Source: a virus
Length of the DNA: 64,000 nucleotides
Virus record (IMG/VR): IMGVR_UViG_3300046694_000223
Span: 102,581 to 166,580 of that record
Reading direction: 5' to 3' (one strand)
In this document: piece after piece, positions 2,229 to 59,161 of the stretch
Numbering within the stretch: the stretch's first letter is position 1
Layout: every line of letters begins with the position of its first letter
The notes under the pieces: generated by a model
The model's input: the letters and a program-made list of their open reading frames with translations, nothing else
What the model was told of the DNA's origin: nothing
Database searches by the model: none
Made by a program: the position numbers and the translations under genes

Positions 2229-2532
2229 AAACGTCAATAAATTCAAATGTTTTTGTTTTTGTCAATACAAATGTTGTTGCACAAAATTTCCTTACATAAA
2301 TTAGGATAATAGCGTGTTTTGGTGTTGACATTCTCTGAAAATTGAAAAGTACTGCATTGCTACCAGGAATACGAATATATGTGACAAATATCCCTCTTAT
2401 TTTGTATTAACCACATATCTTTACTGTTAAACATAAAAACACTTCGAATACTCAAAAATTACAAAAAGACATAATAAAAAACCCTTTGTTTATAAGGGTT
2501 TTTTATTCGCACTTCTTGATGAAATTCGTATT

Positions 2533-2688
2533 TTATGAAACTACAACAACTGTCAGCGGTATTGCATTTAACAAAAGAACTGCTGCGGCCATCCCGAGAT
2601 TCATCTTTGTTGTTTTATACTTTCCAATTAACCCGGGTACTGCCAAGCTTAATGACACAACGAAAACGATAATCGCAAGTGTATGCAT
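2533..2688 (-). CDS. Small membrane protein (51 aa, not in the ORF track)
   Basis: MHTLAIIVFVVSLSLAVPGLIG...AAAVLLLNAIPLTVVVVS; GGAGG RBS; two hydrophobic segments. Confidence 0.7.
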   Translation of the reverse strand: MHTLAIIVFVVSLSLAVPGLIGKYKTTKMNLGMAAAVLLLNAIPLTVVVVS

Positions 2689-2754
2689 TGCTATTCCTCC
2701 TTGTTCATTTATGAATTTATTTTACCTCAATTCATTGATGAACACAAAGAGGAA

Positions 2755-2973
2755 TCAATTTCTTTTAAGAATATTGCCAACAACCTTAAAACTCTCATCT
2801 TGTTCAAGATAGTCCTCAAGTCCACACCATTCTCTCTGTTGTCCAATTTCAACCCCATATGCTCTATTAACATCATCCCATAAGACAACGGCCTTAATCA
2901 TGCTATCGCCCATTAAAACGTCTCCTATCCTAACATAATCACCATTAAGCACTGATCCAGTGTTATGATTCAT
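2755..2973 (-). CDS. YopX-like small phage protein
   Basis: GDVL..VVLWDD...FKVVGNI resembles the YopX C-terminus; AAAGGAG RBS. Confidence 0.55.
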   Translation of the reverse strand: MNHNTGSVLNGDYVRIGDVLMGDSMIKAVVLWDDVNRAYGVEIGQQREWCGLEDYLEQDESFKVVGNILKRN

Positions 2974-3044
2974 TGTTCGTTCTCCTTTGGTTTTGATAAA
3001 AGATGCCTTTCATTCTCCTAACCCTCGAATTGTGTAACAAACAT

Positions 3045-3230
3045 TTATTTTGATCCTTGGTAAACTGGCAATTCTAATCCCATTAGTTCCATCTTGCTCC
3101 AATAAGATTCCGTAACTGTCGCACGTAATAATTCCTCTATACTAACGCTTCCACCAGATGCTTCAATATCATGTTTAAGTGCCTTCCATACAGACTCATG
3201 CAAAGATAGGTCGATGGGCATAGTAATCAT
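3045..3230 (-). CDS. Hypothetical phage protein
   Basis: 61-aa ORF with AAGGAG RBS. Confidence 0.65.
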   Translation of the reverse strand: MITMPIDLSLHESVWKALKHDIEASGGSVSIEELLRATVTESYWSKMELMGLELPVYQGSK

Positions 3231-3301
3231 TTATACATCACTCCTTATTTTAATACTTCGCAATATACACCTATCATTTAACTTTATAAAACATTCCATT
3301 A

Positions 3302-3535
3302 TCAGAAGTTAAAACATAACGCCGTAATTTCTGATAACCATAATATTAAAACTAGACATCCAGCGGTTAAACAAAATCCAATTAACGAAAATACGATTTT
3401 CAAGTATTTCCGCTCACTCATTTCTTTAAACGTTAAGATAAACTCACTTTCACTATGATATGACATTATCCCTCTATATAAATATTTACAGAGCATTACA
3501 GTCGCATAAGAGTAAATTAGAAAAAATACAAGCAT
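3302..3535 (-). CDS. Small membrane protein
   Basis: Two hydrophobic stretches; AAGGAGAG RBS. Confidence 0.65.
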   Translation of the reverse strand: MLVFFLIYSYATVMLCKYLYRGIMSYHSESEFILTFKEMSERKYLKIVFSLIGFCLTAGCLVLILWLSEITALCFNF

Positions 3536-3568
3536 TGTTCGTACTCTCCTTTTAAATTAGCCAATTGA

Positions 3569-4087: not shown

Positions 4088-4116
4088 TTCCTTTATTTTT
4101 TGATGAAACAGTCATT

Positions 4117-4516: not shown

Positions 4517-4557
4517 GATAATCCTCCCCTTTTTATTATTATAAAATAGTTATATTA

Positions 4558-4896: not shown

Positions 4897-4927
4897 CTCA
4901 AGACCTCCGTAGTCATTTTATCTAAAA

Positions 4928-5134: not shown

Positions 5135-5243
5135 TTTTGATCATCTCCTCTTATTTTAAAACCCTTATAAATATTGACTTTTTTCGACCCAATATCCTCA
5201 TGAAATCAACCTTTTATAAATACAATCTACAAACTTTGTGGTT

Positions 5244-5480: not shown

Positions 5481-5698
5481 AAATATTTTACTTAAGCATA
5501 CTTCGCCATCCTAACATGCAATCCCTTAATCTCAGCCTCAACCATCATTAACCGTTGTGGCGATGACTTAGAAACCGCAGAATCCTTCAGTGCTTCCAGA
5601 TCGCGAATTTGTACAGCAATGATTGATCTCATTTTAGCATTATCACTATTCAATTTACCATTCTCCTTCATATGTATAATATCCTTCTTGACTCCTTT

Positions 5699-5745
5699 AT
5701 TTTACCACACACTTAATTATTGTTCAACATATATTTATTTATTAA
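5699..5745 (-). promoter_or_regulatory. Early sigmaA promoter with upstream AATAAATATAT box
   Basis: TTAATAAATAAATATATG-TTGAAC-17-TAAAAT with extended TG. Confidence 0.75.
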
Positions 5746-5887
5746 ACGAAAATGGCGAACACATATTTATGTCCGCCACATCAGTTATTTATGATTTTGA
5801 CTATATTTCTTAGCAGCATCAAGTAATCCAATTTCTACCCCTTCTACAGACACTACAACGCATTTTCCGCCCTTAACTCGTCCATTC

Positions 5888-7960: not shown

Positions 7961-8359
7961 CTCCTCATGAAAATCTAGAGTTACTCTTTCAGTGCTTCAT
8001 CCATCATTTTTTGAATACGTTTTACATCATCAATTCTTTCATCGTCCCTATTGCCTCTAGCCCATTTCCATAAGATATTATCAATCAGTTCAAGATCGTC
8101 TTTATCAATTTCTAGATTAAATAATTCCTTTTTTATGATTTTCACTAAACACTACCACCCTTCTTATTATGCGGCCTTCACTTTATGGATCAAGATAATC
8201 CCTTTATCATCCTTACACATTTCTACAAACTGTTTCATTTCTCCTTCATCATCAAAACTGTACACATTCACTGCTAACTTGTCACAAATCTTTTCAATGA
8301 TTTTTACTTGATGCATTAATCCGTTTCACCTCATGTATGTATGTTTCTTATCTGTAATT

Positions 8360-8406
8360 ATCTTATCACATAATTATTATATAATCAATATATATTTATT
8401 AATTAA
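8360..8406 (-). promoter_or_regulatory. Early sigmaA promoter with AATAAATATAT box
   Basis: box-TTGATT-17-TAAGAT with extended TG. Confidence 0.7.
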
Positions 8407-8418
8407 AATTAATATTCC

Positions 8419-9010: not shown

Positions 9011-9012
9011 AT

Positions 9013-10468: not shown

Positions 10469-10589
10469 CTTCTTACTTCATTTCTCCTGCTTTCTTAATT
10501 CAATCTTACCATAATAATTCTTCAATATAAAGTCTTTTCTTCATATTGAAGAATTATTACCAGATAAAATTGACATTTCATTTGGTCTA

Positions 10590-10805
10590 TCACTTAGTTA
10601 AAGTACCGTTCACCATTTCCAAACTATCCACCAAAGCATTCAACAACCTAATTTCAGAAATAGGATAATCAGAAATCTTGCCCACTCTATTACCTTCAGA
10701 ATCTTTATGCATTACTTTTATGTATCTTACTCCAGCTTCGTTATATTCTGTCACCCATATCTGAAGACCATTTTCTGTATCACCTGTATACAACCATGAT
10801 TCCAT
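10590..10805 (-). CDS. Hypothetical phage protein
   Basis: 71 aa, AAGGAG RBS, bounded by palindromes at 10564 and 10824. Confidence 0.7.
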   Translation of the reverse strand: MESWLYTGDTENGLQIWVTEYNEAGVRYIKVMHKDSEGNRVGKISDYPISEIRLLNALVDSLEMVNGTLTK

Positions 10806-12855: not shown

Positions 12856-13143
12856 GTTGGCCGCCTCCTATGTATTAATCTTATGAATACATCATATCAC
12901 ACTTTTATGTGTTTGTATATATTTATTTATTAAATTATTCTCACTAATATTTATACAATATTGTGTATTTTCTCATGAAAAATACGACACTCATAAACTA
13001 AGTATCGTATGAATATTCATATAAAATTTGATGAAATCTTGTTTTTATCAGGTTTATTTACTTTGATAATTTAAATTGATCGCGAGACATAAAATTAATA
13101 TTTCTTCTTATATAAAAATAAGAGGGGAAGAAATCCCCCCCTG

Positions 13144-14551: not shown

Positions 14552-14829
14552 GCTTCAGTATCTCCGTATTGACTTTTGCCTGTAGCATATTCATAAGCTT
14601 TAAGGAAGATTTCCATTGTGTTTTCATCGATCATTTTTGATGTCCAATTGTCTTCAACATCACCATCAACATAAAAGTCATCAGATCCAAACCGCGAATT
14701 CGTATTAATAAGAGCAAAGGAGTTAGGGGCAATTACTGTATCTGTATCAAAGTTAGTAACTACGATAGTTGTAAAGTTTTCACGGTTAATTACTTTTAGT
14801 TGGTTCATATGTATCACGCTCCGCTTCAT
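14545..14829 (-). CDS. Hypothetical phage protein
   Basis: Downstream of promoter TAGACA-17-TATGAT (14841-14887). Confidence 0.65.
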   Translation of the reverse strand: MKRSVIHMNQLKVINRENFTTIVVTNFDTDTVIAPNSFALINTNSRFGSDDFYVDGDVEDNWTSKMIDENTMEIFLKAYEYATGKSQYGDTEAW

Positions 14830-14889
14830 TTGATATTTACATCATAACACATTTATTTATTTCTGTCTACATATATTTATTAATTAAAG

Positions 14890-15183
14890 CTATTCGCATT
14901 CATATTCCCGTATCAACTTCTTTGCAATCCATCGGTCAGACATTTCAGCTATGTGCATTTCGTTAAAGTCATCTTCAAACATTCCATTACCTTTATATGC
15001 TGCCCATGCTCCATCTTCAGCAAGTTCCAGGAACACTCTGCGAAGCTCTGGAACCGTGTATTCATTACACTTGATATCTCCACCAGTTGCAGCGGAAACG
15101 GCCTTAGACACTCTCTTGATCAGCGTTTCAATCGGAGTTACCTTTTTGACTTGTGCTAATGTTGTTGTTGTCATATATATCAC
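14890..15183 (-). CDS. Hypothetical phage protein
   Basis: Downstream of promoter TTGAAC-17-TATAAT (15205-15251). Confidence 0.65.
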   Translation of the reverse strand: MIYMTTTTLAQVKKVTPIETLIKRVSKAVSAATGGDIKCNEYTVPELRRVFLELAEDGAWAAYKGNGMFEDDFNEMHIAEMSDRWIAKKLIREYECE

Positions 15184-15285
15184 CTCTTCATTAGGAATAA
15201 CTAAATTATAGCATGTATAAATTCATAGTTCAACATATATTTATTAATTAAAAAAGACCCGTTAAGGTCTGTTTTAAAAAGCCGT

Positions 15286-15738: not shown

Positions 15739-16104
15739 CTATTCTTCTTCAATAAAATTCCCTTCGTTGTCGAACTGTTCACTATCTTTACTGTCAATAA
15801 AAACTTCTTTAAAGAATTTAATATCATTCTGATCATCAACAACCATTAAGGCTTCATCACGAGTATTAACATAAATTTTTGCATTTTTAGGTGAGAAGTC
15901 ATATCCCGCAATACCCTCTAGATAACTCATTGTTTCGGTTGGAGCAAACAGGATTACCTCTTCCTCAGAAAATACATACGTAAACAGTTCAAGGCTGTCT
16001 ACTGTTAGTTCGTAATATTCTGCTATGTATCCCATTTGTTTTGGAGTTAACTGCGCACCTTCGTTAGCAATCTTGTTGTACTTTTCCGAAATAATATTAA
16101 TCAT
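15739..16104 (-). CDS. Acidic hypothetical protein
   Basis: 121 aa, very D/E-rich; promoter TTGACT-17-TACAAT at 16158-16186. Confidence 0.7.
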   Translation of the reverse strand: MINIISEKYNKIANEGAQLTPKQMGYIAEYYELTVDSLELFTYVFSEEEVILFAPTETMSYLEGIAGYDFSPKNAKIYVNTRDEALMVVDDQNDIKFFKEVFIDSKDSEQFDNEGNFIEEE

Positions 16105-16273: not shown

Positions 16274-19200
16274 CTATACAATTTCTTGTTGACCCCAGTT
16301 CAACCTAGTGTATCCGTCTTGATCCTTTTCTTTCGTCATCAGCATGTTTAGAATATCGAAATCAACCCCGAAACGCTCAAATAATTCTTCATCATCTATG
16401 TTGTCATCTTTCATGAATAAATTAAGCTTTTCTTTGCTCAATATCAATTTAAGCAAATTACTTTCGATACTATTTTCATATGTTACGTAATGAATTTCTT
16501 TATTATCGGCCTCAGAATCAAAACGAATAAATCTCGCTGTAAACTGGTGTAAGCTGGCCCCGTTCCAGGATAATTCCGTTACAATGATTTTATTTACATA
16601 ATTTATGCTTACACTACTAGACAATGATTGCTGAGTGCAAACCATAATAGGGTTGGTATGTTTTTTCATTTCTAAAATCATTTCTTTACGCTGCTTAAGG
16701 CTCATATCTTCACCTGTAACAATAAATAATTTGCGTTCTGGGAAAAGCTCTCTAATATATCTCGCATAACTATAAACTGTCTTCTTAAAACGACACCCGA
16801 TAACTACAGGTTCATTATTCCATTCCTTTATCATAGCAAATACTTTTTTAAATTTAGATGAGTATCCTTTACCGCTATATTCATTAAATAAGTGTGCAGC
16901 GCTGCAACTTCTAATTAACATATTGAGTTGCTGAATGATTTCTAACATCCTATCTTTTCGACTGTTTCCAGTTCTCTGTACGTTTCTAGCCATTTCATAA
17001 AATTCATCAACAATCTTTTTATATAGTACATATTCATGGTTATTAAATGTGCAAGTATCTTGAAATCTACTTGCAATGGATCTTCCCGTAATTTCTTCAA
17101 ACGTTCTAGTAATAATTGTAGAGTCAATAATATTTTTAAGAATATCTGAATTATAAATATGTTGCGTAGACTGCGACACGCCGAATACAGTTATTTTTTC
17201 TGGGATGTGGCTTTCCTGGAATAACTTTTGCCCTTTATGATATTGCGGATAAGGCTTTAAATAGTGTGAATTTCGTTCTGTTTTCAGCTCTTTAGTTTTT
17301 TTATCTTGTACATAAATTTCTTCACAGCGATTAATAAAATTCACCGATGAATTAAAGAGCAATTGAAATTGCGGAAATGCTTCCCCTATTGAATTTCTAA
17401 CACTTGTACCCGTAGTCAAAAGTTTATGTTTTGCATTCCTAAATACATTCAAAGTCGCTTTTGTTCTTTTGCTTGTCATTGTTGCTATACTGTCGGATTC
17501 ATCCAGTACTAGGCCAATTTTATGCTCGTTTAAGCGTATGAATTTCTTAATATGTCTTTGGTACTTGGTTAACATATTAAACGTCACTAGAACGATGTCA
17601 GAAGGCTTAATTCTTGCAATACTTTTTAATGAATCAATCTTAACAAATGGGATTCCGTAACTATCTAAAGCAGATTCAAAAGTGCCAGTAATTGCAATCG
17701 CTGGAGCAATAATAAACACGTTTTTAACATTGCTGTGTTGTAAATGATATTGAGCATAAGCAATTGCTGCCAATGATTTACCGCCTCCACAATCCCACTG
17801 TAACAGGCCGTAACGCTTCTGTAGCATCTTTCCTATATCTTCCTTTTGAATTCTGTTCAACTCAATTACACGGTCATTTAGAGAGTCATTAAGCCTATAT
17901 GAATTTAACCATTCAGAAATATAACCGTTCTGCTGCATTTCTTTAAATGGCTTACTTTGCTGTTTGTATGCTTTCATTTTTCTATTCAATAATTTTCTAT
18001 AGGTTTGATCTTCAAATGGATATTCTCCCTTTATAATCATGTCAATAAAACTAATCTCTTTGACTCCCGTAAACTTAGACAGATATACTTTATTCTTATG
18101 AGAGTATCCCTTTAATTTTAATCCGCTATTGGTCTTAATCAGTTTAATACAATCTTGCTCATTTTTATGTTGATTCTTTAAGACTCGCTTAAGATATGAC
18201 AATACTTTATTAGGCGTTAAACGGACTTTTTCCCATTCTTCGAACTTCATTCCTTCGGGTTTTTCTTGATCGTAATATTTATTGACTTGTTCCATACATG
18301 CGGCATATTTGTTGTTAATATTTTTTGATCGTTTGATATCAAATAGGTATTTTTTAACTTTTGACTGAAATTCTAAATTATTTTTACTTTCCTTTTGGTT
18401 ATTCTGTACTTGCTCAAAGAATAATTTATGCTTTATTTTTTCCTTTTGTTCAATTACTGGTGCAATATATGTATTATAAATTGATTCGCTGTTTAAGTCT
18501 GAAATTTCGCTTAACATTGATAGTCTTGTAATATACAAATTATCATTTGTTACATGTTCACTCTTTTTAGAAAAGAACATAATTTTTGTACGGAATTTAT
18601 CGACTCCGCTAGAATTAAAAGAATCAGACGGTAACTCCGCTTGATGGATAAAATTGTACATATCATTCATTTGTTTGATCATTCCACCGTCTGAGAAATC
18701 ATCTGATAAAAAGGAAACCGGAACAATTAAGGCAAGTATCCCGCACGGTTTCAAAAGTTCATAGGCTTTAATGCAATAGTATAGTTGACTCAGATATTCC
18801 GTTCTATTTATATAAAGTTTTAAATTAAAAGGTGGATTACCTAAAACATAATCGAAGGTTGTCCTTGGGCTATATTCGCGTACATCTCCGCATGTTGCGT
18901 CAATATCAGGATAGAGATATTTCATAACTTTATAATTATTTATATTTAGTTCATTTGCATATACGTTTTGATGGTTCGGCAACCAATTAATAAAGTTTCC
19001 ACTACCCGCCGTTAAATCTGCAACTAACTGGAATTGATCAATTTTTAAGCAATTAATAAGAAATTTAGATAATGAATGAGGTGTAAAGAATTCTCCTACT
19101 TCACGCAATTTTTTAGCCTCAGTGAATGAGTAAAAGGAATCGAAGTCTTTAAATTCTAAACCATGCAAACCACCCGAACCGCTGTACATGTCGTATATAT

Positions 19201-19333
19201 TCTGCTTAGTAATCCCATGTTTTGAACATGAATCATTCTGAATCATAAATTGAATTTTTTCGTTTATTTCTTTGCGCTTGTTTTGTGGAACTACTATATT
19301 TGAAATTTGATACACTTGTTTATCCTCCATCAA
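16274..19333 (-). CDS. N6-adenine DNA methyltransferase-SF2/SNF2 helicase fusion (DarB-like)
   Basis: GEFFTP, DLTAGSGNF, GNPPF MTase motifs; WDCGGGKS Walker A, LDESD Walker B, TTGT, C-terminal helicase domain. Confidence 0.85.
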   Translation of the reverse strand: MMEDKQVYQISNIVVPQNKRKEINEKIQFMIQNDSCSKHGITKQNIYDMYSGSGGLHGLEFKDFDSFYSFTEAKKLREVGEFFTPHSLSKFLINCLKIDQFQLVADLTAGSGNFINWLPNHQNVYANELNINNYKVMKYLYPDIDATCGDVREYSPRTTFDYVLGNPPFNLKLYINRTEYLSQLYYCIKAYELLKPCGILALIVPVSFLSDDFSDGGMIKQMNDMYNFIHQAELPSDSFNSSGVDKFRTKIMFFSKKSEHVTNDNLYITRLSMLSEISDLNSESIYNTYIAPVIEQKEKIKHKLFFEQVQNNQKESKNNLEFQSKVKKYLFDIKRSKNINNKYAACMEQVNKYYDQEKPEGMKFEEWEKVRLTPNKVLSYLKRVLKNQHKNEQDCIKLIKTNSGLKLKGYSHKNKVYLSKFTGVKEISFIDMIIKGEYPFEDQTYRKLLNRKMKAYKQQSKPFKEMQQNGYISEWLNSYRLNDSLNDRVIELNRIQKEDIGKMLQKRYGLLQWDCGGGKSLAAIAYAQYHLQHSNVKNVFIIAPAIAITGTFESALDSYGIPFVKIDSLKSIARIKPSDIVLVTFNMLTKYQRHIKKFIRLNEHKIGLVLDESDSIATMTSKRTKATLNVFRNAKHKLLTTGTSVRNSIGEAFPQFQLLFNSSVNFINRCEEIYVQDKKTKELKTERNSHYLKPYPQYHKGQKLFQESHIPEKITVFGVSQSTQHIYNSDILKNIIDSTIITRTFEEITGRSIASRFQDTCTFNNHEYVLYKKIVDEFYEMARNVQRTGNSRKDRMLEIIQQLNMLIRSCSAAHLFNEYSGKGYSSKFKKVFAMIKEWNNEPVVIGCRFKKTVYSYARYIRELFPERKLFIVTGEDMSLKQRKEMILEMKKHTNPIMVCTQQSLSSSVSINYVNKIIVTELSWNGASLHQFTARFIRFDSEADNKEIHYVTYENSIESNLLKLILSKEKLNLFMKDDNIDDEELFERFGVDFDILNMLMTKEKDQDGYTRLNWGQQEIV

Positions 19334-21737: not shown

Positions 21738-21767
21738 GTGAATAATATGTATTAACTTCTTATCTAT

Positions 21768-21814
21768 ATATTAAACCATTGTTAGCTTAAAGTCAACATA
21801 TATTTATTCTTTAA
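21768..21814 (-). promoter_or_regulatory. Early sigmaA promoter with AATAAATATAT box
   Basis: box-TTGACT-17-TAATAT. Confidence 0.7.
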
Positions 21815-21838
21815 ACAAAAAAGAAGCCTTTTGGCCTC

Positions 21839-24624: not shown

Positions 24625-24707
24625 TTGTGTTGCCTCCTTGTTTCATCTCTTGAATACATTATATCACATGAGACAACACAAATACAACATATATTTATTC
24701 TTTAAAT

Positions 24708-25980: not shown

Positions 25981-26269
25981 TATATATCGTCTCCCTTTAG
26001 GAATATGTATTTGATTTGGTAAGTTCATTATAACACGATATCGTAGTTTATTTCAATATATTTATTTATTAAATTGATGAATTAATTATTCTCAAGAATA
26101 AACGAGGCTACTACTTCAATTGCAAACAGAACCGTAAATACTGAGGATTCTAACGCCCATTTATATTGTTTCTTCCGTATTTCCTTAATCATTCGACTAA
26201 TAGAATATATACACATTGCGAAATAAATGTAAATCATATCTTCACCTCCCCCTTTTATAAACCTTTTTT

Positions 26270-26605: not shown

Positions 26606-26699
26606 TGTTATCGGCTCCTTTTATGTATCTCGTTTTTGGTTATACCTAATTATAACACGGTTATACATGCAATGCAATAGGTTTTTATATATTTATTTA

Positions 26700-27098
26700 T
26701 TAAATGGGCATACTATTCCCCTCTTCAATATCACGGTTAACACGCTGCAAATATTGAAGTGACGTTTCAATGATACATGTTTCAGGATTGAACTTTTCAA
26801 CGTTAGAACGCTCATAGAATTCACCAATGATAGATCCGTCTTTACTACTTACAACCCATGAACCGGAGTAGTGGTCTAGTTCTGGAATGTGATTAGATAT
26901 AATTACATTTTTACTCAGGTGTTCACCTGTGAGATCAATAAAGATACCAGGATTAAGAATGTCGGTGTTGTCATCAATAATTGTGATATTGTTAACATCT
27001 GTTTGAGTTGTGTTTCCGTTTTCCCATTTAATAACAATATCTTTGCCAAATGAATCGGAGTATTCATTGATGATAATACCATACGTTTCACCTGTCAC
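26700..27098 (-). CDS. Hypothetical phage protein
   Basis: 132 aa, overlaps the upstream gene's stop. Confidence 0.6.
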   Translation of the reverse strand: MTGETYGIIINEYSDSFGKDIVIKWENGNTTQTDVNNITIIDDNTDILNPGIFIDLTGEHLSKNVIISNHIPELDHYSGSWVVSSKDGSIIGEFYERSNVEKFNPETCIIETSLQYLQRVNRDIEEGNSMPI

Positions 27099-27439: not shown

Positions 27440-27529
27440 ATGTATGACCTCCTGTTATTTAACTTTATAATTCATTATAGCATGGATTAAATATTATTAC
27501 AATGTTTTTGTATATATTTATTTATTAAA

Positions 27530-29130
27530 ATGGATTGGTATTCTGGGCTGTGGTCAGTAAGGAATGAGTGTGGTATAGTTGGGATGTTGTGATAGTGGAT
27601 GAGATGAACGTTAATGTCGTTGTGATATATACATAGAGATAATAATAATGTGAGATAGTTACTGAGTATACATAGCAATGAGTATATCTTATTGATATAT
27701 ATCGTATTGATATATAAAATAATTGGAACACAAACATCATATTGCATTATGCTATATATCATGTTGATACATGTGATGTATAATGACTAATATCAACCAG
27801 TGAGTGACCATTAAGATAAATTATATTTAGACTTAGTATAAATTCAAAATAGATAATGATGTGATAGATGGTGATGATAATTGGGTAGATAGCCAGTGGC
27901 AATCTAATTGAGAATAGAGTGATAATAGATTTAGACTTAGTATAAATATAATGTGATGCCATAATTTAGCGGCCTCGCGTTATCGTTCGATTCTGCGAGT
28001 GTGTATAGTGGATATATACAGTGATATCATATGTGATCTGCCTGGGATTGAAAAATTAAAATGAAAATATGGTCAATTTCAGAAAAATTTTAAATAAAAT
28101 TGAGTGAGATAGGCAGCATATAACTGGTGAGTTGTCAAGGTGGATCATACAAGCTAGATAGCATACAACTATACTTATGTGCTATCTATTAAGGGATACC
28201 GGGGGTAGTTTACAACCCAATAAATGGTAAATTTAGAAAATAGTCCGCTATCTGTTCCACTCCTACACTCAACTCAATTTTTACTTTTCATCTCATCTCA
28301 CATTCATCTCCAGAAATTTTATCTTCTCAAAACTGTACCATCAATTTTTCCATCACCTTCCATTTATCCCCCAATCTAACCTTAATTTCAATCGTAATTT
28401 CAATCGTAAACCCCTTATATTCCCTACACTTTTTCCCCTTAATTTCCTCTAAAATCACCTCATTTTCCTCATTTATCACCTATTTCCTCTCAATAACCCT
28501 TATATTTCCTCAACTTTTACGATTACTCTATATATCGCAATCCATCTCTTATCATCAACTCACCAACTCAAACACATATCAGCACATCTCAAACACCAAT
28601 TGATCCTTATTCCATCTACACTTTTCACCTCTCGCTAACCTCAAATTATCACCATTTTTCTAATTCTAATCGACACTCTACTCTCATCATTTATCACTCA
28701 CGATTAAAATTTATCATCACATCACCATGTCTCCAGGGGAGGGGGTATATTAACATAAAAAAGGTAGCACCCAATATCCTGGATACTACCTACATATAAT
28801 TATTCAACTTTAATTTTCATTCATCTTCCACATTACACTTTCCATCACAACTCAATTTCAATTTTAAACTCAGATTCCTTTATAATTTATAATAAATACA
28901 CACCTAAACTATGTATCTGGTCTATTTATTCATCCCAATATATTCTCCACAAAATTATACATAAATTATAATGAATTTAATAATCAATCATCCACAGACA
29001 ATCAACTATTCAAATATAAAATTTAAACTCAAAAATTTATCCTCTTCTTTTGTTTTTGATCTTTGTTTTTTCATCTTTGTTTTTTCATCTTTCAAAATTT
29101 CAAACTCGCAAAGGTTGGGAGCTGCGCGAC
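27530..29130. other. Long non-coding region with abrupt strand-composition flip
   Basis: G/purine-rich plus strand to ~28210, C/pyrimidine-rich thereafter; only low-complexity ORFs. Confidence 0.7.
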
Positions 29131-32237: not shown

Positions 32238-33305
32238 TTACTCAACACTCTCCTTTTTATTTTCGATTTTATCATTAACAATTTTCTGTGCATCTCTCTT
32301 CATCTGATGAATCACTCCTTCGTTTTGTCTCATAAGTAATTGAATTAATTCCTCTTTACTTAATTCCTCAAAAACACCATCCTCAATTTTCTCGCCAATT
32401 CTAAGACTCAGGCTATTACTCATGTCATTATCTTTGTGTCTATATTTTTCTGTTACATTGTAACTGCTGTGGTTGTAGTGCTCTTTGGCTTCTTCCAATG
32501 TTCCATACATAGATGCAACGTTTCTGAAGCTATGGAATACAACATTTCTTTGTTCGGAGATACCAAGCTTATCCTTTAAATAAGTCATCATATCCTGAAT
32601 TGCCCCAGTGCTTAAGTGAAATATTTTATTATCATTGTATCTCGCATAATACTTCTGATCCTTGATTTTCAGTAGATACTGATAAAGATCTTCTGAAATT
32701 GGAACAGTATGCTTCTTACCACATTTACCGATTACAGTCACTTCGTAATATTTATTACTTGGATGTTTTACAATGTCATTCCATTCTAATTTACGTAGCG
32801 AATCCTTACGAAAGCTTGTTGTGTATGCCATTCTAATCAATGCCGATTTTTCTACTCCTTTGACAGTAGCAACAATAATATCTGCCATTTTTTCAGCCTC
32901 ATGAGTATAGAGCGCCCCACATCTTACCGAGTCATCAGCAAGTGGATTGATTCTGGTGGTAACCGATTTAACATCATAATCATTCTTCTCCAGGAACACG
33001 TACAGTGATTGGATGGCAGCAATGACATTGTTGATTGAAGTGTTAGTGTATTGTCTTTCTCCTTCTTCATCAAGAATTTCTTTTAGAAAGTTTCGGTATT
33101 TCAAAACATCTGCATTTCGGATGTATAAGTCCTCTCTTGTTAAGAGTTCAAGGTCTTTACCTTTAAACCATTGAAAGAACTTTCTCAAACCACGTTCATA
33201 ATTTTCAGATGTGTGTTTGCTTTCAAATCCTTTTAGGTGTGTCTGGATATCCTCCCACACACTTCCCGTATGTAATCCCACTACATTATTTGTTACAGTA
33301 CTCAT
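32238..33305 (-). CDS. Tyrosine recombinase with intact catalytic set (likely start MSTVTN)
   Basis: R (TTSFRK), K (GKCGK), HxxR (FHSFR), H (NHSS), Y (TEKY); AAGGAAGGTG RBS. Confidence 0.85.
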   Translation of the reverse strand: MSTVTNNVVGLHTGSVWEDIQTHLKGFESKHTSENYERGLRKFFQWFKGKDLELLTREDLYIRNADVLKYRNFLKEILDEEGERQYTNTSINNVIAAIQSLYVFLEKNDYDVKSVTTRINPLADDSVRCGALYTHEAEKMADIIVATVKGVEKSALIRMAYTTSFRKDSLRKLEWNDIVKHPSNKYYEVTVIGKCGKKHTVPISEDLYQYLLKIKDQKYYARYNDNKIFHLSTGAIQDMMTYLKDKLGISEQRNVVFHSFRNVASMYGTLEEAKEHYNHSSYNVTEKYRHKDNDMSNSLSLRIGEKIEDGVFEELSKEELIQLLMRQNEGVIHQMKRDAQKIVNDKIENKKESVE

Positions 33306-33380
33306 ATTGTTCACCTTCCTTCTTGTAGATATTGTTTTTAATAAATTCATTGTGTCTGCATCCATCTGTCTCATAAACAC

Positions 33381-33538
33381 ATCATATCACATTATTATGT
33401 TTATGTATATATTTATTCATTAAATTCTTCATCTTTTTTGTTATATATAATGAAGCAACATAGAACCCTCTTCATGTGTTGTCCGGTAAATTTAATAAAT
33501 AAATATATGTTGACGATGCAATATTATCATGTTATATT
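33381..33538. promoter_or_regulatory. Divergent control region: leftward promoter for the recombinase operon and rightward promoter for the RNAP operon
   Basis: Leftward TG-TATGAT with the box over the -35 position; rightward box-TTGACG-17-TATATT. Confidence 0.7.
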
Positions 33539-34245: not shown

Positions 34246-37035
34246 TTGGCAAAGCAAAAGACGAGTCTTAAATACATACTAAAAATTAATTCCACTAGAA
34301 TCCGCAAAGCGAACTGGGACTTGAAAATTTCATTGTCTGAAGCCTTAGATAATGACGAGATTGTTTCTTTAGCAGATAGTTCCGTAATTAGATTCATTAA
34401 ACAAATACATAGAGAACAATCTGATAATGACTTAGATATTGAAAAAGAAATCAAAAAAGTAAAAAATGAAATTAAAAAGATAAAAAAAGAATCTAATTCG
34501 ACTGAAAACAGGGCAAAAATCAAGAAACTATACATAAAACTTAATGATTTGAGATATGTCCCAGAATACATATGCGTTATCATTGATAAAATTTCTGATT
34601 TTGACAGAATGAATAGAAAAAAAGGATTTTATATTAACGGGAAAAGATTTAACCGCCTATTGGCAACGACTGGTGGCGCAAAAAACAGTACCGTCGTTTA
34701 TATGAGTGAAGATATACATGAAATAATCAATAATAAAATCGACAATGGGAGAAATAAAAATACTACGTTTGTTCCAGCAAAATTAGAGGCTTATAAAGCT
34801 TTGTCTTGTAGCGCAAGTGTACCTGTCTCAGATCCAAAGGGAATTATTGTTGTAAAAGATTGTATTACCTCATTCAAGGAAAATGTAATTAGGATATATG
34901 ATGAAGAAGACAGTAAATTCCCTAAAATGGAAGAAGTGGATGATTATTTATGTGAAAACAATGCAAGCGATGGGTTCGGTTTGGCGCTACCTTCTCTTCT
35001 GGAGAGATGGAATAAGGAGCTTGGAGAAGATTATGTTCCCAGTGGTATGTGTATAAGAGGAAGTTTCATCAAAGGTATGATATTCCCCTTTATGTATACA
35101 GATTTTGCTGATACGATAGCAAAAAAAGATACTGTGATAGATATATGGGGAGACGAAAGGAATATCCATGATGCGGAACTAATACTTACCGAATCAATGT
35201 TAAAGCTGTGGGGTTCTTATGATAATATGGAACACTACTTGAGATGTTGCAAGGAAAATTCCTATACTCTGAGTGTCACTAAAGTTGCTCCAGAAAAACT
35301 AGAGAACCAAAGAAATCTCAACTATCAATTTATACAGTCTCTTGATCTGAGTGATGAACAGATTGATTCGTTAATTTACCCGACAATAAGAATGATTAAA
35401 GATTCTTTGGGCGATGACCATATGAAGTCCCTCCTATTTCTTAGAGGAGATCATCTAACAGACGAAAATGTACTAAGCAGCCAATATGATTTTTCAATGG
35501 CAATAATGGCAGATCATCGAATGAATAATGACCCATTTATTAAAAATAGAATTTATGACATGATTTCTAAAAGAATAGATGATGCCAAGAAAGGTGACTT
35601 GATTGTCGAGGGCAATTTTAGTATTGCATCTGGCGACCCCTACTCTCTTTGTCAAAGCATGTTTGGTATTACATCGACAGGAATTTTAAAAGCAGGAGAG
35701 TTTTATAGCAATCACTGGAATGAAAAAGGTATTAGTGAAGTGGTTGCATTTAGAGCGCCAATGACATTACACAATAATATTCGTACATTTAAATTGATTA
35801 AATCAGAAGAGACTGAACAATGGTACAAATATATGAAAACTGTAACAATCGTGAATTCATTTGATAGTACAGCAAATGCTCTAAACGGTATGGATTTCGA
35901 TGCCGACTTAGTATTGACTGTTAACAATGATATTATTAAAGGTGCTGTAAGAAACCTAAAGCCAATTATTTGTACTCAGAAAAGTGCCGACAAGACCATT
36001 CCAAACGAACAATCTCTAATTAAGGCCAATAAACTCTCCTTTGGTGATGAGATTGGAGCAGTTACAAATAGGGGTACGGCAATGTATGATGTGCTTGCTA
36101 CACTGGATAAGAACAGTAATGAATATAAAGAAGTTTTATATCGTATTACATGTGTTCAGCATTATCAGCAAAATGCAATAGACAAAACAAAGGGCATACA
36201 GAGTAATCCTATGCCAAAGGAGTGGTATGATAAAAAATCAAATGAAATAAACGAAAAAGATAATGATGAAATCAAAGAACTAAAAAGGCTTAACAATCTT
36301 ATTGTTGCAGATAAAAAACCATATTTCTTCATATACATATATCCTCATCTAATGAAAAAATATAAAAGGTATGTCGCAAACAACAACACTAACTGCAATT
36401 ATCGATTTGGTATTTCTCTGAAACAAATGTTAAATAAAAAAAATAAGTCTGAGGAAGAAAAAGAGTTCATTGAATCTTACCTAGAAGACTTCCCAGTATC
36501 ACTTGCTAACTCTACAATGAACAGAATTTGTTGGAAGATTGAAAACGAATTTAAAACTCCAACAAAAAAGAGCAAGGATATTATATTTGATTATAAAATA
36601 ATGAAATCTTCTAAATATTACGACAAATCTCTTAAAAAGAGAATCATTGAACTACATAATGAACATAATCAAAAAGTTCAATCTCACATGAGATCAGTTA
36701 AAAATTCTAGAGAGGACGATGAAACTAAAACAGAAAAAAGACAAAGATTCACAGAAGAATTTAAAAGAAAGGCCCTTGATGTATGTAGCGATATTGAAGA
36801 GTTAACAAATGTTATTATAGATATCTGTTATAAAGAAAAAACAGGCAAGACTAAACAATTTTTGTGGGATGTGTGTGGAGAACGAATCATTAAAAACCTT
36901 CTTCGGAACAATGATGAGAAGATTAGATTTCCAACGCAAGATGAAAGCGGTGATATTTATTATGGTGGACTGAGATTTAAAGAAATCGAGAAAAATTACA
37001 ATGAGGTGGGCTTAGATGAAATTGATTTTGAATGA
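34246..37035 (+). CDS. yonO: YonO-like single-subunit DNA-dependent RNA polymerase
   Basis: 929 aa; NGMDFDAD catalytic DxDxD loop, FRAP motif, IDKTKG; position upstream of HU and morphogenesis genes as in SPbeta. Confidence 0.85.
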   Translation: MAKQKTSLKYILKINSTRIRKANWDLKISLSEALDNDEIVSLADSSVIRFIKQIHREQSDNDLDIEKEIKKVKNEIKKIKKESNSTENRAKIKKLYIKLNDLRYVPEYICVIIDKISDFDRMNRKKGFYINGKRFNRLLATTGGAKNSTVVYMSEDIHEIINNKIDNGRNKNTTFVPAKLEAYKALSCSASVPVSDPKGIIVVKDCITSFKENVIRIYDEEDSKFPKMEEVDDYLCENNASDGFGLALPSLLERWNKELGEDYVPSGMCIRGSFIKGMIFPFMYTDFADTIAKKDTVIDIWGDERNIHDAELILTESMLKLWGSYDNMEHYLRCCKENSYTLSVTKVAPEKLENQRNLNYQFIQSLDLSDEQIDSLIYPTIRMIKDSLGDDHMKSLLFLRGDHLTDENVLSSQYDFSMAIMADHRMNNDPFIKNRIYDMISKRIDDAKKGDLIVEGNFSIASGDPYSLCQSMFGITSTGILKAGEFYSNHWNEKGISEVVAFRAPMTLHNNIRTFKLIKSEETEQWYKYMKTVTIVNSFDSTANALNGMDFDADLVLTVNNDIIKGAVRNLKPIICTQKSADKTIPNEQSLIKANKLSFGDEIGAVTNRGTAMYDVLATLDKNSNEYKEVLYRITCVQHYQQNAIDKTKGIQSNPMPKEWYDKKSNEINEKDNDEIKELKRLNNLIVADKKPYFFIYIYPHLMKKYKRYVANNNTNCNYRFGISLKQMLNKKNKSEEEKEFIESYLEDFPVSLANSTMNRICWKIENEFKTPTKKSKDIIFDYKIMKSSKYYDKSLKKRIIELHNEHNQKVQSHMRSVKNSREDDETKTEKRQRFTEEFKRKALDVCSDIEELTNVIIDICYKEKTGKTKQFLWDVCGERIIKNLLRNNDEKIRFPTQDESGDIYYGGLRFKEIEKNYNEVGLDEIDFE

Positions 37036-37798
37036 GAAAGAATACATAGATAAAGTATTAAACAACGAGATCGAAAATGATAATCTTTCAGATACTGTTA
37101 GAACATTAGTAAAATATTATGTTGTAAAAGGAAACGATAAAGTAGACATTGCTGATAAAATCGAAGTGTATTTAAAGGATCGATTAAAAGAAAAATATAG
37201 GGTAAAAAAATGGGAAAGTTATATATCCAGTGTCATATCTTCTACTTTTAAAACTAAAAGAAACTATGAGCGCTCTGGAAAAACTTTTCAATTAAACGAA
37301 ATAAACAATGTTTTTGTCTCAGACAACGAACTAGAAAGAATTAAGTTAATTGAAAACTTAAACGCAGAAAAGATAGCATTCGTTTTGTTGGTTTATGGAA
37401 AGATCAATCAAATCATCGGCGGAGATGGTAAAGTAGGTACGTATTGCAACAGAGAGTTCTTTAAAGACTGTGGCCTCTCCTTTTCTAATGCAAATAGAAA
37501 TTTGATTAATCACTTAAAACAATTGGGATATGTAACTCCATCAGATAATCATCAGTCGTCTTTTGTAGAGATTAATATTGCAGATGAAGATAGTGCATAT
37601 GATGAAGAAGACGGAATAAATATTTGCGAATTCAGAGATTTTGTATTACTTTATGAAAAATGGAGAGGTATTAGAGTTGACTATTGTGAGTGTGGCGTTC
37701 CAATTCGTATATCTTCAAATAGAAACAAATATTGCAAGGAGTGTAGCAAGGTTAAGCGAAGAGAAAAACAACGTGAGTGGGATAGGAATAATAGATGA
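37016..37798 (+). CDS. Hypothetical protein with wHTH-like segment and C-terminal Zn-finger
   Basis: CECG...NKYCKEC; overlaps the RNAP stop. Confidence 0.75.
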   Translation: MKLILNEKEYIDKVLNNEIENDNLSDTVRTLVKYYVVKGNDKVDIADKIEVYLKDRLKEKYRVKKWESYISSVISSTFKTKRNYERSGKTFQLNEINNVFVSDNELERIKLIENLNAEKIAFVLLVYGKINQIIGGDGKVGTYCNREFFKDCGLSFSNANRNLINHLKQLGYVTPSDNHQSSFVEINIADEDSAYDEEDGINICEFRDFVLLYEKWRGIRVDYCECGVPIRISSNRNKYCKECSKVKRREKQREWDRNNR

Positions 37799-37939
37799 TG
37801 TAGTAATCCGACATTTAGAAAACACCGAAAAACCATTATAAACACTAGGTTTTTTGACTATTTTTCAAAAACGCTAATAGGGAAGAATAAATATATAATA
37901 TTCTTCTTCATTTTATTAAACTAAGGGAGATATTTAATT

Positions 37940-38260: not shown

Positions 38261-38299
38261 TAAATATTCATATAAAACAATAGTTTTATCATATATACA

Positions 38300-38560
38300 T
38301 ATTCAAGAGATGTATTATCTCAACTGAAAGTCGATAAGGTAGAAAAGGTTCTCTACACGCTTGGAACGCACGTTGTGTACGCTCCAAGTCATCAGAGATG
38401 CAGGATATGCCGCCCTGCTATCGACTTCGATTAACTTACCCCTGAACAAGGGAACCCGTAAGAAGAAACTGAAAGACTAAGAATGCAATGATATAAGCCG
38501 AAATGGCAAGTTTTATTTAATAGTACACAAGGTTCACAAATGAGGGGATTAACCTCCCCT
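38300..38560 (+). ncRNA. Candidate structured RNA (multibranch fold)
   Basis: AAGTCGATA/TATCGACTT closing stem enclosing three hairpins, plus flanking hairpins; GC-richer than surroundings; no ORF. Confidence 0.5.
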
Positions 38561-39812: not shown

Positions 39813-39983
39813 ATGAAATCTAATAAAGAAAAACTGATCGGCCTCAATGAAATTCGTGAGGCTGCTTTTGAACTATATCCAAATGCAAGTAAAATTACAA
39901 TTACTATTGATGGAGATAAGATCAAAGTCTCTCCTATCGAAGACTATGAAATTCCAGTAGGACTAAATACTGAAGAGGAGTGA
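39813..39983 (+). CDS. Small protein (56 aa, not in the ORF track)
   Basis: MKSNKEKLIGLNEIREAAF...; AGGGAG RBS. Confidence 0.6.
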   Translation: MKSNKEKLIGLNEIREAAFELYPNASKITITIDGDKIKVSPIEDYEIPVGLNTEEE

Positions 39984-56285: not shown

Positions 56286-56771
56286 ATGTCAAAAAAACTT
56301 ACTGCTGCTGAACTAAATAAACTTAGTTCCAAATTTAACGAACTAAAAAAAGTACATATTCTTGATGGTCAATATGAAGTATCTATTCATACCAGTTTCC
56401 GCGAGTCACTGATTGAAAATGTAGTTATGACATACATTGGATTACTTGAAGACTTGAAGAAAAGCGAAAATGTAACCAATGAGACAATTAAGAATACAGT
56501 TGTACTCCTTGACACATTGATTCTTAGAGAGTTTACTGATCTTCCTATCCCAAAGAAAAATGATATTCCTAACTTGATTAAATTTACACACAACTTGCTA
56601 GACAATGGTATTTTAGTTGAAGTATATAATCATATTCCAAAGGATCAAATCGAGAAAGTAAAAACTAAACTTGAACAAGTATCAAAAGGCATTGGTGAAG
56701 CAACAGCAGAGCTTGCAATTCAAGCAGCATTACAAGAAGAAAAAACAGAAGTTGATTCTGATGAACTTTAA
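56286..56771 (+). CDS. Putative tail assembly chaperone
   Basis: 161 aa, tail-module position. Confidence 0.55.
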   Translation: MSKKLTAAELNKLSSKFNELKKVHILDGQYEVSIHTSFRESLIENVVMTYIGLLEDLKKSENVTNETIKNTVVLLDTLILREFTDLPIPKKNDIPNLIKFTHNLLDNGILVEVYNHIPKDQIEKVKTKLEQVSKGIGEATAELAIQAALQEEKTEVDSDEL

Positions 56772-57204
56772 GAATGTCAATGATTTAGCCAAATACATAA
56801 ATCAGCAAGTATTGTCCAAAACACTCAAAGAAGACGTTGGTGAAAAACTGGTCAGACCAAAGTTAAAAGAGAATATCCAATCTGAGGTCTATGATGTTTA
56901 TGAAGAACCTGTTGTATATGAACGTTTAAAAGAACATGGCGGTTTACTTGACGATGCTAATATCCACGTAGATATGGTTAACTCGAACACTGTATCCATT
57001 GAGAGCAAACGTATGGATGATGGTAGAGATGTATCTGTCATTGTTGAAACTGGTGTTGGGTACAACGAGGAATGGTCTTTCCCTTATACACATAAGGGGA
57101 GGCCCTTTACTGAGGTTACGAGAGATGAATTGTTGAATGATGGTGGCGTTGAACATGCTATTTATAATGGGTTGAAGCGACAGGGATTGAATGTAAAGAA
57201 GTAG
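56761..57204 (+). CDS. Tail/neck protein (HK97 gp10-like), likely start MNFKN
   Basis: VYDVY..YER..GGL...RPFTE pattern. Confidence 0.6.
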   Translation: MNFKNVNDLAKYINQQVLSKTLKEDVGEKLVRPKLKENIQSEVYDVYEEPVVYERLKEHGGLLDDANIHVDMVNSNTVSIESKRMDDGRDVSVIVETGVGYNEEWSFPYTHKGRPFTEVTRDELLNDGGVEHAIYNGLKRQGLNVKK

Positions 57205-57242
57205 TGCGTAAGTTTTGATAAAATGGTTATTTAATAAACATT

Positions 57243-57440
57243 TTGGAGGGCGATTTAATGAATCTGACTTCTCCTATTCCCTATTATACTTTAGAAGGAC
57301 TTACTGTTTTAGCAAGTCAAGAAGAGATTTTGTCTTATGAAATGCAAAAGAAAATTGGGGATAAATTGCTTAATGAAACTAAGTTAAAAATTATAGAAGA
57401 TAAAATCGTTAATTTTTCTATATACCATAAAAACACATAA
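57243..57440 (+). CDS. Hypothetical protein
   Basis: GGAGG RBS before MNLTSP; follows the palindrome at 57218. Confidence 0.55.
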   Translation: MEGDLMNLTSPIPYYTLEGLTVLASQEEILSYEMQKKIGDKLLNETKLKIIEDKIVNFSIYHKNT

Positions 57441-57452
57441 GGATTTGATGCA

Positions 57453-58535
57453 ATGAGCAAGAAAGTAAATAAGCAGAATACGTTGCGAGAACCCGCTAAG
57501 AAATTAGAGGAAGTAACTGAAGAAATGTGGCTCAAGGTGAATGATGACTATCGCAACCTTGCAGAAGAATTCGTCTCGGTCCAGGACTTGAGTATTCAAT
57601 CGAAATCACAGTACAAAAGTGTATTGAGACAATTCGGATGGTACATGTTCAACTCAATGAACAACAAGAAGTTTTATGAAATTACAAAGCGTGACTTTAT
57701 TAGGTATCTTAGTTATATCCGTGATAACAGAAAGATGTCTTCTTCTGCCATCGGCGTTCGAAAGTCTGTAGTGTCAAGTTTGTGCAACTATATTGAGAAT
57801 GTTGTAGCAGAAGATGATTCTAACTATAAAATGTTCAGAAACTTTACTCGTGGCCTCCCTTCTATCCCCCGTAATCGTGTTTATGAAAAGGTTAAAGTCA
57901 CCAAAGAAGAATACGACATGATGATGAGTGTACTAGAAGGTGATAAGAACTGGTTGGGTATGGCATGGCTTGCTACGGCCTTCCTGGTTGGTGCTAGACG
58001 AGCAGAGATTATTCAGTTTAAAACTGAAATACTCGAATATTCAGTTGTTGAAGGACAGAACTATGTAATGTCTCATGTTGTTAGGGGAAAAGGAGCTTCG
58101 ACTGACGGCAAAAAACTAGAATATATGATCAAATTAGAAGTTCTGAAACATTGGAAAAAGTGGATTGATGAAAGAGGATACGAAAGCGAATATGTATTTA
58201 CTACAAAATATGATCATGAACCCAAAGCAATGTCTTCTGCATGGGCAAATGATTTTTGTATGAACACCCTTTCCGATATTCTTGAACGCCGAATCAATGT
58301 ACATATTTTTAAGAATTCTTGTATTACATATCTGCTTGAATCTGGAGTTCCTATGCATCTTGTTTCTAAATATGTAGCTCATCATAATGATATCTCTACA
58401 ACTCAGATCTATGATTTGCGTGACTTTGAAGAAGAAAAGAATAAGATATTTGATGTTAATGCAACATTTGATAAAGATGAGTCGGAACAATCAGAAGGAA
58501 GTTCGTCTGGATCGTTCGGTAAAAAGAAAAGATAG
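57453..58535 (+). CDS. Tyrosine recombinase family protein (YomM-like)
   Basis: GARRAE (R), RGKG (K), HIFK (HxxK in place of HxxR), AHH, TTQIY (Y). Confidence 0.85.
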   Translation: MSKKVNKQNTLREPAKKLEEVTEEMWLKVNDDYRNLAEEFVSVQDLSIQSKSQYKSVLRQFGWYMFNSMNNKKFYEITKRDFIRYLSYIRDNRKMSSSAIGVRKSVVSSLCNYIENVVAEDDSNYKMFRNFTRGLPSIPRNRVYEKVKVTKEEYDMMMSVLEGDKNWLGMAWLATAFLVGARRAEIIQFKTEILEYSVVEGQNYVMSHVVRGKGASTDGKKLEYMIKLEVLKHWKKWIDERGYESEYVFTTKYDHEPKAMSSAWANDFCMNTLSDILERRINVHIFKNSCITYLLESGVPMHLVSKYVAHHNDISTTQIYDLRDFEEEKNKIFDVNATFDKDESEQSEGSSSGSFGKKKR

Positions 58536-58545
58536 GAGATAAGTA

Positions 58546-58818
58546 ATGAAAGCAACAGTTAGAGGAATTGAAGTTGAAGGAACAGTTGAGGAAATAGCTC
58601 AACTAATTTTTGAGATTGATAAGAATAAGAAGTTGCCACCTGCCACAACTTTTCCTGTCCATCCTATTTATGAGTATCATCCCCCAGTTTATGTCACTCC
58701 TCTTCCCTCCGTACTTAATCCTGACCCAATAGTTAGACCTCAAGTATGGTGCGGTGGATATACGAGTGGTGATAGCACTATGTGTAAACAAGATCCGAAT
58801 ATTCAAATGTATAATTAG
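58546..58818 (+). CDS. Pro-rich hypothetical protein
   Basis: 90 aa, AGGAG RBS; followed by the palindrome at 58827. Confidence 0.65.
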   Translation: MKATVRGIEVEGTVEEIAQLIFEIDKNKKLPPATTFPVHPIYEYHPPVYVTPLPSVLNPDPIVRPQVWCGGYTSGDSTMCKQDPNIQMYN

Positions 58819-59161
58819 GTAACTTGATAAATCTATCATTTTACGAGGAATTCACACTTAAAAAGTCCAATGTTTATGCGGGTTTTTCGATCATTGAAAA
58901 TTGAATAATTCTCGAAATAGTCAGCATCTATTCGTAGGTGTTGGCAGTTTTGCAAATTATTTAAAATATTACCCAATGTGAAACTTTCGGGTACTCAAGC
59001 AAGGAAATTTATGGTATACTTGATACGAAGTAACCCTACTCTCAATTAAGTCATTGACCAATATAAGACTATGAATAATCTCTTCTTCTTAATCATAAAC
59101 TAACCTATCAAAATTGATAGGAGCTGTGAAAAGAATGAAGAAGAAAAAAGGAGGAAAAAGA

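Follow-up and report, generated by a model that had tools for sequence, protein, structure and literature searches.

Recombination sites of the lambda attP type consist of a core accompanied by accessory segments (H2 and H′) that are bent by IHF, and by arm sites. The IRS of Tn4430 comprises a core with the accessory motifs DR1 and DR2. In T4-type phages, promoter-early stem-loops (PeSLs) are composite promoter/terminator cassettes (PMC2839356, PMC4122927). PeSLs and lambda-type attP are the closest described systems to a composite element in the final 64 kb (positions 102581-166580; hereafter the window, 64,000 nt) of a 166,580-bp phage genome with direct terminal repeats, IMG/VR record IMGVR_UViG_3300046694_000223 (G000). 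The composite, ~60 bp in all, consists of an 18-bp palindrome at a gene junction (the core), a linker, and a sequence of ~27 bp at a fixed distance from the core, here termed motif 2. Motif 2 is a separate, selected element. Our preferred reading, to which we give a probability of about 0.4, is that it may act at the DNA level, as an accessory or architectural part of recombination joints.

The composite belongs to none of the families tested. Like lambda attP and the Tn4430 IRS, it joins a dyad-symmetric core to an accessory segment centred about 35-40 bp off on the same helical face. Unlike attP, which occurs once per element beside an integrase gene, composites number nine or ten per genome; moreover, the phage composites lack arm-type repeats, and motif 2 does not match the IHF consensus. 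PeSLs resemble the composite in being short repeated composites between the accessory genes of large phages, at points of gene replacement, with a stem-loop directly past a stop codon. However, PeSLs are built on a σ70 promoter, with the stem-loop at five positions relative to it, whereas the G000 composite is promoterless and mostly non-folding, and has as its partner a palindrome with a site-specific spacer at a fixed distance. Integron attI, a single site beside an IntI-type integrase and a Pc promoter, with each cassette ending in an attC site, differs as well: composites are many and scattered, with no IntI context.

The phage, its relatives and the core palindromes

G000 is a large, SPbeta-like phage of Bacillus type. 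Its YomM-like protein (gene at window 57453-58535) is 60-63% identical to homologues in SPbeta, phi3T and the Goe phages. At the DNA level, similarity to G000 was found in none of the named phages. A second protein of the recombinase family, of 380 aa, is encoded at window 32238-33380 (- strand), and the phage also has an HU-like protein. Relatives came from an exact-pattern scan of IMG/VR for motif, gap and core, which matched four contigs. Two of these, contigs of 174.5 kb and 178.9 kb, are the related phages G001 and G004 compared below.

The core is the palindrome ATRAAA-N6-TTTYAT. G000 contains 27 exact cores (0-1 expected) and 50 with one mismatch (about 12 expected), nearly all of them intergenic: a few bases past a stop codon, and 10-30 nt ahead of the next start. 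The arms frequently are extended to TGATAAAA/TTTTATCA, and most cores are followed, in gene direction, by a purine-rich nARGA flank. An earlier note on this DNA drew attention to the pentamer TCCTC ahead of the core in composites. The pentamer is there, but it is the reverse complement of this general flank and is not specific to composites.

Cores in general act as breakpoints of homology between related phages: at 23 of 27 simple orthologous cores in G000 and G004, homology is restricted to one flank. Cores function without motif 2, because SPbeta contains 14 exact cores and motif 2 is absent from it. Directly after SPbeta yomM, at NC_001884 39852-39902 (L001), an exact core at 39885 lies 7 nt from an annotated stem-loop. 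The pair is the positional counterpart of window 58827-58887; the hairpin sequence is unrelated to motif 2.

Motif 2 and the composite sites

Motif 2 follows the pattern A4-6 CC(C/G) (GC/TT) ATAAACA YTGG(G/AC) T4-6. A loose pattern search of the whole G000 genome recovered 10 true copies, nine of them in composites; the motif accompanies about 10% of the gene-junction palindromes. Genome coordinates of the ten are 15798, about 35320, 56812, 65051, 74327, 76818, 105056, 107738, 140408 and 161440, and the last four lie in the window, as follows (window coordinates; predicted folding free energies).

2476..2504, motif 2 copy 1: perfect hairpin form A6 CCCTT-TGTTTAT-AAGGG T6; -12.2 kcal/mol
2505..2518, linker of copy 1: 14 nt, 10 of the 14 bases in common with the G004 orthologue
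2519..2536, core of copy 1: exact, ATGAAA-ttcgta-TTTTAT; same spacer at G004 97514
5158..5186, motif 2 copy 2: AAAACCCTTATAAATATTGAC T6; no stable hairpin (0 to -0.3 kcal/mol)
5187..5199, linker of copy 2: about 15 nt if measured from where the T-run stops, with TCCTC as its final bases
5200..5217, core of copy 2: exact, ATGAAA-tcaacc-TTTTAT; orthologue at G004 93573, spacer ccaacc
37828..37856 (+), motif 2 copy 4: AAAAACCATTATAAACACTAGG T6; without a core, after a 260-aa gene at 37016-37798
58827..58844, core of copy 3: degenerate, + strand ATAAAT-ctatca-TTTTAC, downstream of the YomM-like module
58860..58887, motif 2 copy 3: reverse complement AAAAACCCGCATAAACATTGGAC T5, GC variant; weak hairpin, -1.9 kcal/mol

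The sequence confirms the four copies listed in the earlier note, including the absence of a core at the copy near 37828, along with start-to-start offsets of 41-42 bp between motif and core. Copy 1 lies 14 nt past its core in the gene (-) direction, and is the sole window copy called by a terminator scan. Its linker sequence differs among paralogous sites, and homology between G000 and G004 stops at its core. The earlier note took this copy, at 2478, to mark the downstream end of the core array; cores resume upstream of the window, beyond an 8.7-kb gap, so that part of the proposal falls. Copy 2 is followed directly by the ribosome-binding site (RBS) and start codon of the next (-) gene. Copy 3 lies 15 nt past its core in the gene (+) direction, with a linker that ends in TCCTC when read on the reverse complement. 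The core, read as GTAAAA-N6-ATTTAT, has two mismatches to the consensus; its orthologue at G004 39585 is intact (ATGAAA-tgatag-TTTTAT). Copy 4 has an orthologue at G004 58767, likewise without a core. No canonical terminator was found near copies 3 and 4.

Copy 1 and its G004 counterpart (L028, 97548-97573) have identical stems and an inverted 7-nt loop (TGTTTAT versus ATAAATC). A loop-only flip also separates the G000 copy at 15798 from its paralogues.

A fixed and helically phased distance

In nine of the ten G000 copies, the edge of the A- or T-run lies 13-16 nt from a core, and the linker measures 13-16 nt across 24 composites from three phages. The probability that at least nine of ten copies fall within a 3-nt spacing window of the 91 cores amounts to 4e-22 over the whole genome, and to 1e-14 when the count is restricted to intergenic DNA. 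Shuffled genomes gave 3-5 loose motif matches, none of them near cores. From this control and the spacing probability, the association of core and motif 2 is not due to chance.

Distance is constrained, and arrangement varies: motif 2 may precede or follow the core, and may face either way. Read along transcription, the order is motif, linker, core and RBS in five composites, and core, linker and motif in four. Over the three phages, the internal ATAAACA is directed at the core in 17-18 of the 24 copies and faces the opposite way in 6-7; with respect to transcription, about 16 copies are forward and 7 reverse.

A/T runs of at least 3 nt in the 24 composites are centred at -40.8, -29.9, -18.4, -6.0, +4.0 and +13.4 relative to the core start, with a mean spacing of about 10.8 bp. 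The first three runs belong to motif 2 and the last two to the core arms. Because linker length is fixed, the tracts in motif 2 are in phase with those in the core. The composite thus resembles attP-type sites in that motif 2 keeps a set distance, in phase with the helix, to a dyad-symmetric core, and the phased runs would be consistent with curvature, or with protein binding along one face.

Islands of identity between related phages

Ten composites are present in G004, five in G001, and one in a further contig (G003). For each of the nine G000 composites, G004 contains an orthologue; the six-base spacer of the core is the same, as is the order along the genome. The G001 composites have different core spacers and the same spacing. 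G003 and a locus in the Paenibacillus radicibacter genome each contain one composite, with the same 22-nt distance between TGG and core. The spacing, which the earlier note proposed to examine across related phages, therefore is conserved in homologous phages.

Two IMG/VR contigs of 145 and 117 kb (L189 and L196; 30% G+C) represent another SPbeta-size lineage with a composite. Here the gap between TGG and core is 13 nt as opposed to 22 nt, about one helical turn shorter.

In anchored alignments of G000 and G004, motif, linker and core are about 90% identical. Three of the nine pairs have one homologous flank, with homology ending at the core. In five others both flanks are unrelated, and identity spans from the distal A-run of motif 2 to the far arm of the core. 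The ~60-bp composite is thus an island of identity that is kept while the genes at one or both sides are replaced.

A wider family

Searches with the 20-mer AAAACCCKYATAAACAYTGG found at least 120 loci in GTDB contigs (one genome per species) and 48 in IMG/VR, where a control with reversed letters gave 0 matches. The GTDB loci represent 73 independent contexts from many phyla; the motif is placed at the junctions between modules in unrelated phages and integrative elements. Among the matches listed, G+C content ranges from 29 to 61%; the two degenerate positions are almost only GC (about 52) or TT (about 19), the same two variants as in the phage; about 55-60% of copies extend into GTTTT; the motif lies 14-19 nt past the guaA stop codon (IEWE*), in either orientation, at about 26 loci; and ten independent loci contain a tyrosine integrase within 40-300 nt. 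Iterons, differing from element to element, come next at the guaA loci. The motif also adjoins tRNA 3′ ends or halves at some loci, the guaA, metA and tRNA ends beside it being restored ones, and follows capsid and rep genes in other elements. At seven or more loci it lies between iterons, 80-240 nt behind genes for AAA_25, VapE or DUF927/Cch primase/helicase proteins. Its forms are varied: self-closing; joined with its own inverted copy in a long perfect hairpin; or at the tip of a locus-specific stem. Five motif-bearing bacterial genomes contain 1-3 copies each.

Lachnospiraceae AC2029 (G008) contains three related integrative modules (L207, L208 and L212). Each has, in order, a 62-nt metA 3′ fragment, the motif, TTTTCACG repeats, and three element-specific iterons (AATGGTGTAGTA, AATGGCGTACA or AATGGAGTAA, by module). 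One module sits at the true metA end; another follows an integrase whose arm-binding domain is of Tn916 type. Two of the three are separated by 40 kb next to the real metA, a layout suggestive of two elements in tandem. Each copy falls between the metA 3′ fragment and the element-specific iterons, which does not support the motif as the att crossover core. The placement would fit an element-borne arm feature. Outside the phage clade there is a further likeness to attP: beside integrase genes, the motif has the crossover region, at the restored gene end, on one side and arm-type iterons on the other.

A full-text literature search for the motif sequence returned nothing relevant, and an Rfam 15 search placed no family on the motif at or near gathering score. 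Apart from the composite, the widespread motif could itself be new. A broad proposal can be put forward tentatively, although we think it more doubtful than not. In this view, bacterial mobile DNA would carry an almost universal junction signal not described before, AAAACCC(GC/TT)ATAAACAYTGG(GTTTT). Independently of the host, this architectural or folded-DNA element would be used by tyrosine-recombinase complexes, and perhaps by replication-initiator complexes, beside crossover or loading sites. The SPbeta-like giant phages then would have multiplied this signal beside address-coded joint palindromes, where it would drive slot-by-slot gene exchange. The motif is kept almost letter for letter at 29-61% G+C; it may be a general feature of mobile DNA, and could help to mark where integrated elements end.

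What motif 2 might do

If motif 2 is an accessory module of recombination joints, it would act as DNA and not as message. It would form a bent or protein-bound segment on the helical face of the core, and there help the complex built on the core, which would probably consist of a tyrosine-recombinase-type protein, perhaps together with the HU-like protein of the phage. The analogy is to the IHF-bent segments beside the lambda attP core, which aid Int. A DNA-level function coupled to the core is suggested by four features in combination: orientation is free; sequence is conserved without pairing; distance is fixed and helically phased; and the motif recurs beside recombinase sites elsewhere. 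Well-symmetric copies, such as that at 2476-2504, probably double as weak two-way terminators. If motif 2 does aid complexes at the joint palindromes, each genome provides a natural series of about 10 composite and about 80 simple sites, through which accessory-gene exchange in large temperate phages could be dissected.

Several points weigh against this reading. The SPbeta cores do without motif 2; a weaker bump of A/T runs at -6 also is present at simple cores; composites and simple cores do not differ in their frequency as breakpoints; and some copies are good hairpins with T-runs directly after stop codons, as in a terminator. A relaxed-stem scan identified the compensatory stem variants GCC..GGC, TCC..GGA and GTC..GAC, which would point to recognition of a folded strand rather than of duplex, in a count that is not above chance (five independent compensatory cases against about 3.6 expected). 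Finally, we know of no sequence-specific DNA-binding protein common to all the motif-bearing phyla.

Among the alternatives, the one to be taken most seriously, if still doubtful, is that motif 2 is a weak two-way intrinsic terminator, an attenuator, or an RNA 3′-end hairpin that insulates cassettes or the restored host gene. Its proximity to cores then would result merely from tight packing of signals in short intergenic gaps. The motif has the parts of a Rho-independent terminator, namely a short G+C stem flanked by an A-run and a T-run (T4-6 after nearly all copies), and its start usually coincides with a stop codon or is only a few bases from one, or else that of the preceding core does. 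The earlier note rightly saw a plausible hairpin at 2478: copy 1 is perfect in form, terminator-like, and qualifies. Predicted folds reach -9 to -12 kcal/mol in 5-7 of the 24 copies from the three phages, and the SPbeta stem-loop after yomM occupies the homologous place, 7 nt from its core. Elsewhere copies come after guaA, metA, tRNA, capsid and rep genes; the few compensatory variants lean the same way; and inversion of the loop alone, as between G000 105056 and G004 97548, would be neutral for a hairpin. Yet most copies have no stable G+C-rich stem-loop and fold no better than shuffled sequence (0 to -6 kcal/mol, mostly 0 to -4, against -2.0 ± 1.7 for shuffles); copies 2 (-0.3) and 3 (-1.9) are among these, so the earlier note's own caveat, that the elements might act only as terminators, is not supported. 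Moreover, letters that do not pair, such as the central ATAAACA of the loop and the GAC arm in TTGGAC-T5, are conserved where pairing is not. Five of the nine composites run straight into core, RBS and start codon, the latter no more than about 40-60 nt away, which leaves no space for a promoter; an efficient terminator therefore would silence the next gene. Three (genome 35291, window 2476 and window 58860) are succeeded by a long gap or a promoter-like site. Unrelated terminators in G000 and SPbeta lie 4-20 nt from cores with no fixed distance, whereas motif 2 is always at 13-16 nt. An identity of 20 bases over 73 unrelated contexts, across so wide a range of G+C content, is unlike terminator evolution, and a separate canonical terminator sometimes comes after the motif elsewhere (L042, L180).

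An unlikely alternative is that motif 2 plays no part of its own where the core is concerned: it would be a selfish or hitch-hiking mini-repeat of REP/REPIN type, or part of a longer homology block for general recombination or recombination driven by a single-strand annealing protein. REP, BIME and REPIN elements are short imperfect palindromes after genes, in either orientation and sometimes as inverted doublets, that in some cases serve as terminators or protein-binding sites; REPs are species-specific, high in copy number, and tied to a RAYT gene. The motif shares their position after genes, occurs singly, as inverted doublets with long perfect hairpins (L070, L083, L097) or on locus-specific stem tips (L094, L095, L181), and flips orientation between orthologues. 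Its distribution is patchy, with the low bacterial copy numbers given above; its left and right halves combine almost independently; and SPbeta lacks it. On the other hand, a hitch-hiker is not expected to hold its 13-16-nt distance from the core while the linker drifts, let alone in G001, where all the core spacers differ. No HUH or RAYT-type transposase gene was seen adjoining the motif, nor a Y1/HUH gene among its recurrent neighbours. Copy numbers per genome are far below those of REP families, and near-identity across phyla and G+C contents, in phages and integrative elements, argues for function. Still less probable is the proposal of the earlier note, in which core and accessory arm site form a primary attI/attP-like site for the capture of new cassettes by the YomM-like or another recombinase. 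One composite does lie directly after the YomM-like module, as that note observed; it is the only composite near either of the two PF00589 genes in G000. The fixed distance between core and accessory element resembles attI (core and DR) and attP (core with arm or bending sites), and outside the clade the motif is found in the att regions of integrase-bearing elements. The two-element, fixed-distance arrangement stands: its spacing is conserved, and the neighbouring tyrosine-integrase genes and att-type junctions fit the arm or accessory analogy. The single primary site does not stand, as composites are scattered over about 145 kb of the genome, have motif 2 upstream of the core at some sites and downstream of it at others, and lack arm-type iterons. 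Furthermore, copy 2478 is not the array end, breakpoints are as frequent at simple cores, and the YomM-like protein is unrelated, beyond the catalytic box, to the motif-adjacent integrases elsewhere. Least probable of all, and hardly to be expected, is a strand-specific folded-DNA signal derived from replicative elements (an origin, single-strand origin or nick-site hairpin) and unlinked to cores. The motif's place between element-specific iterons behind primase/helicase genes, in at least seven independent contexts, is the layout of SaPI/PICI-type origins, and its hairpin-tip architecture has an invariant apex. Ten dispersed copies in both orientations, phase-locked to cores, are unlike an origin, however, and the integrase, guaA and metA contexts have no adjoining replication gene.

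Other candidates and neighbouring features

SPBRE is the operator of the SPbeta protein MrpR (YopR), with ten target promoters identified by chromatin affinity purification sequencing (ChAP-seq; PMC10516654). It shares with motif 2 its repeated occurrence between the genes of an SPbeta-type phage, and is bound by a protein of recombinase fold. The SPBRE consensus spans 15-19 bp; the element recovered from the ten published promoters, ACAAAwAATATGTATAwAA, resembles neither motif 2 nor the core, and motif 2 was rejected as an MrpR operator. The likely SPBRE counterpart in G000 is a promoter-linked repeat, AATAAATAAATATATGTTGAC. More than 20 copies are present, reading TTTAATAAATAAATATATGTTGAC in gene direction and then a -10 box, and resembling the SPbeta element; these probably are the operator set of the G000 master repressor. 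Copies in the window include:

5697-5746, promoter-linked repeat
8358-8407, promoter-linked repeat
12879-12940, promoter-linked repeat
14829-14890, promoter-linked repeat
15203-15252, promoter-linked repeat
21766-21815, promoter-linked repeat
24680-24706, promoter-linked repeat
26051-26078, promoter-linked repeat
26682-26709, promoter-linked repeat
27474-27535, promoter-linked repeat
33369-33430, promoter-linked repeat

Motif 2 also was rejected as a promoter: neither reading nor scans revealed -35/-10 pairs inside the composites. A σA promoter assembled from TTGAC(T) of motif 2 and ATRAAA of the core would have 20-21 bp spacing and a -10 element without the final T. By-eye comparison led to acceptance of none of the following: dif/Xer, IHF, Fis, the DnaA box, ParB parS, boxA, and the preQ1-I tail. 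The partial matches were CGCATAA to a XerC arm, and TTATAAACA, which in the TT variant only is one base off an R2-type DnaA box.

Three neighbouring features of the window may be recorded. The minus strand at 16274-19333 encodes a 1019-aa protein of methylase/helicase type, whose best named match (50% identity) is in Clostridium phage D-1873 and not among the phages of the SPbeta group. A long near-perfect palindrome at 10585-10640, taataattcttcaatat ... atattgaagaattatta (- strand, gene direction), lies directly downstream of the core at 10564 and is a candidate operator. Finally, a skipping-rope RNA (Rfam RF02924; 64.6 bits, gathering score 36.7), the sole Rfam match in the window, is at 38329-38426 (+). 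It starts 40 nt past the exact core at 38272-38289, directly upstream of the structural-gene block.

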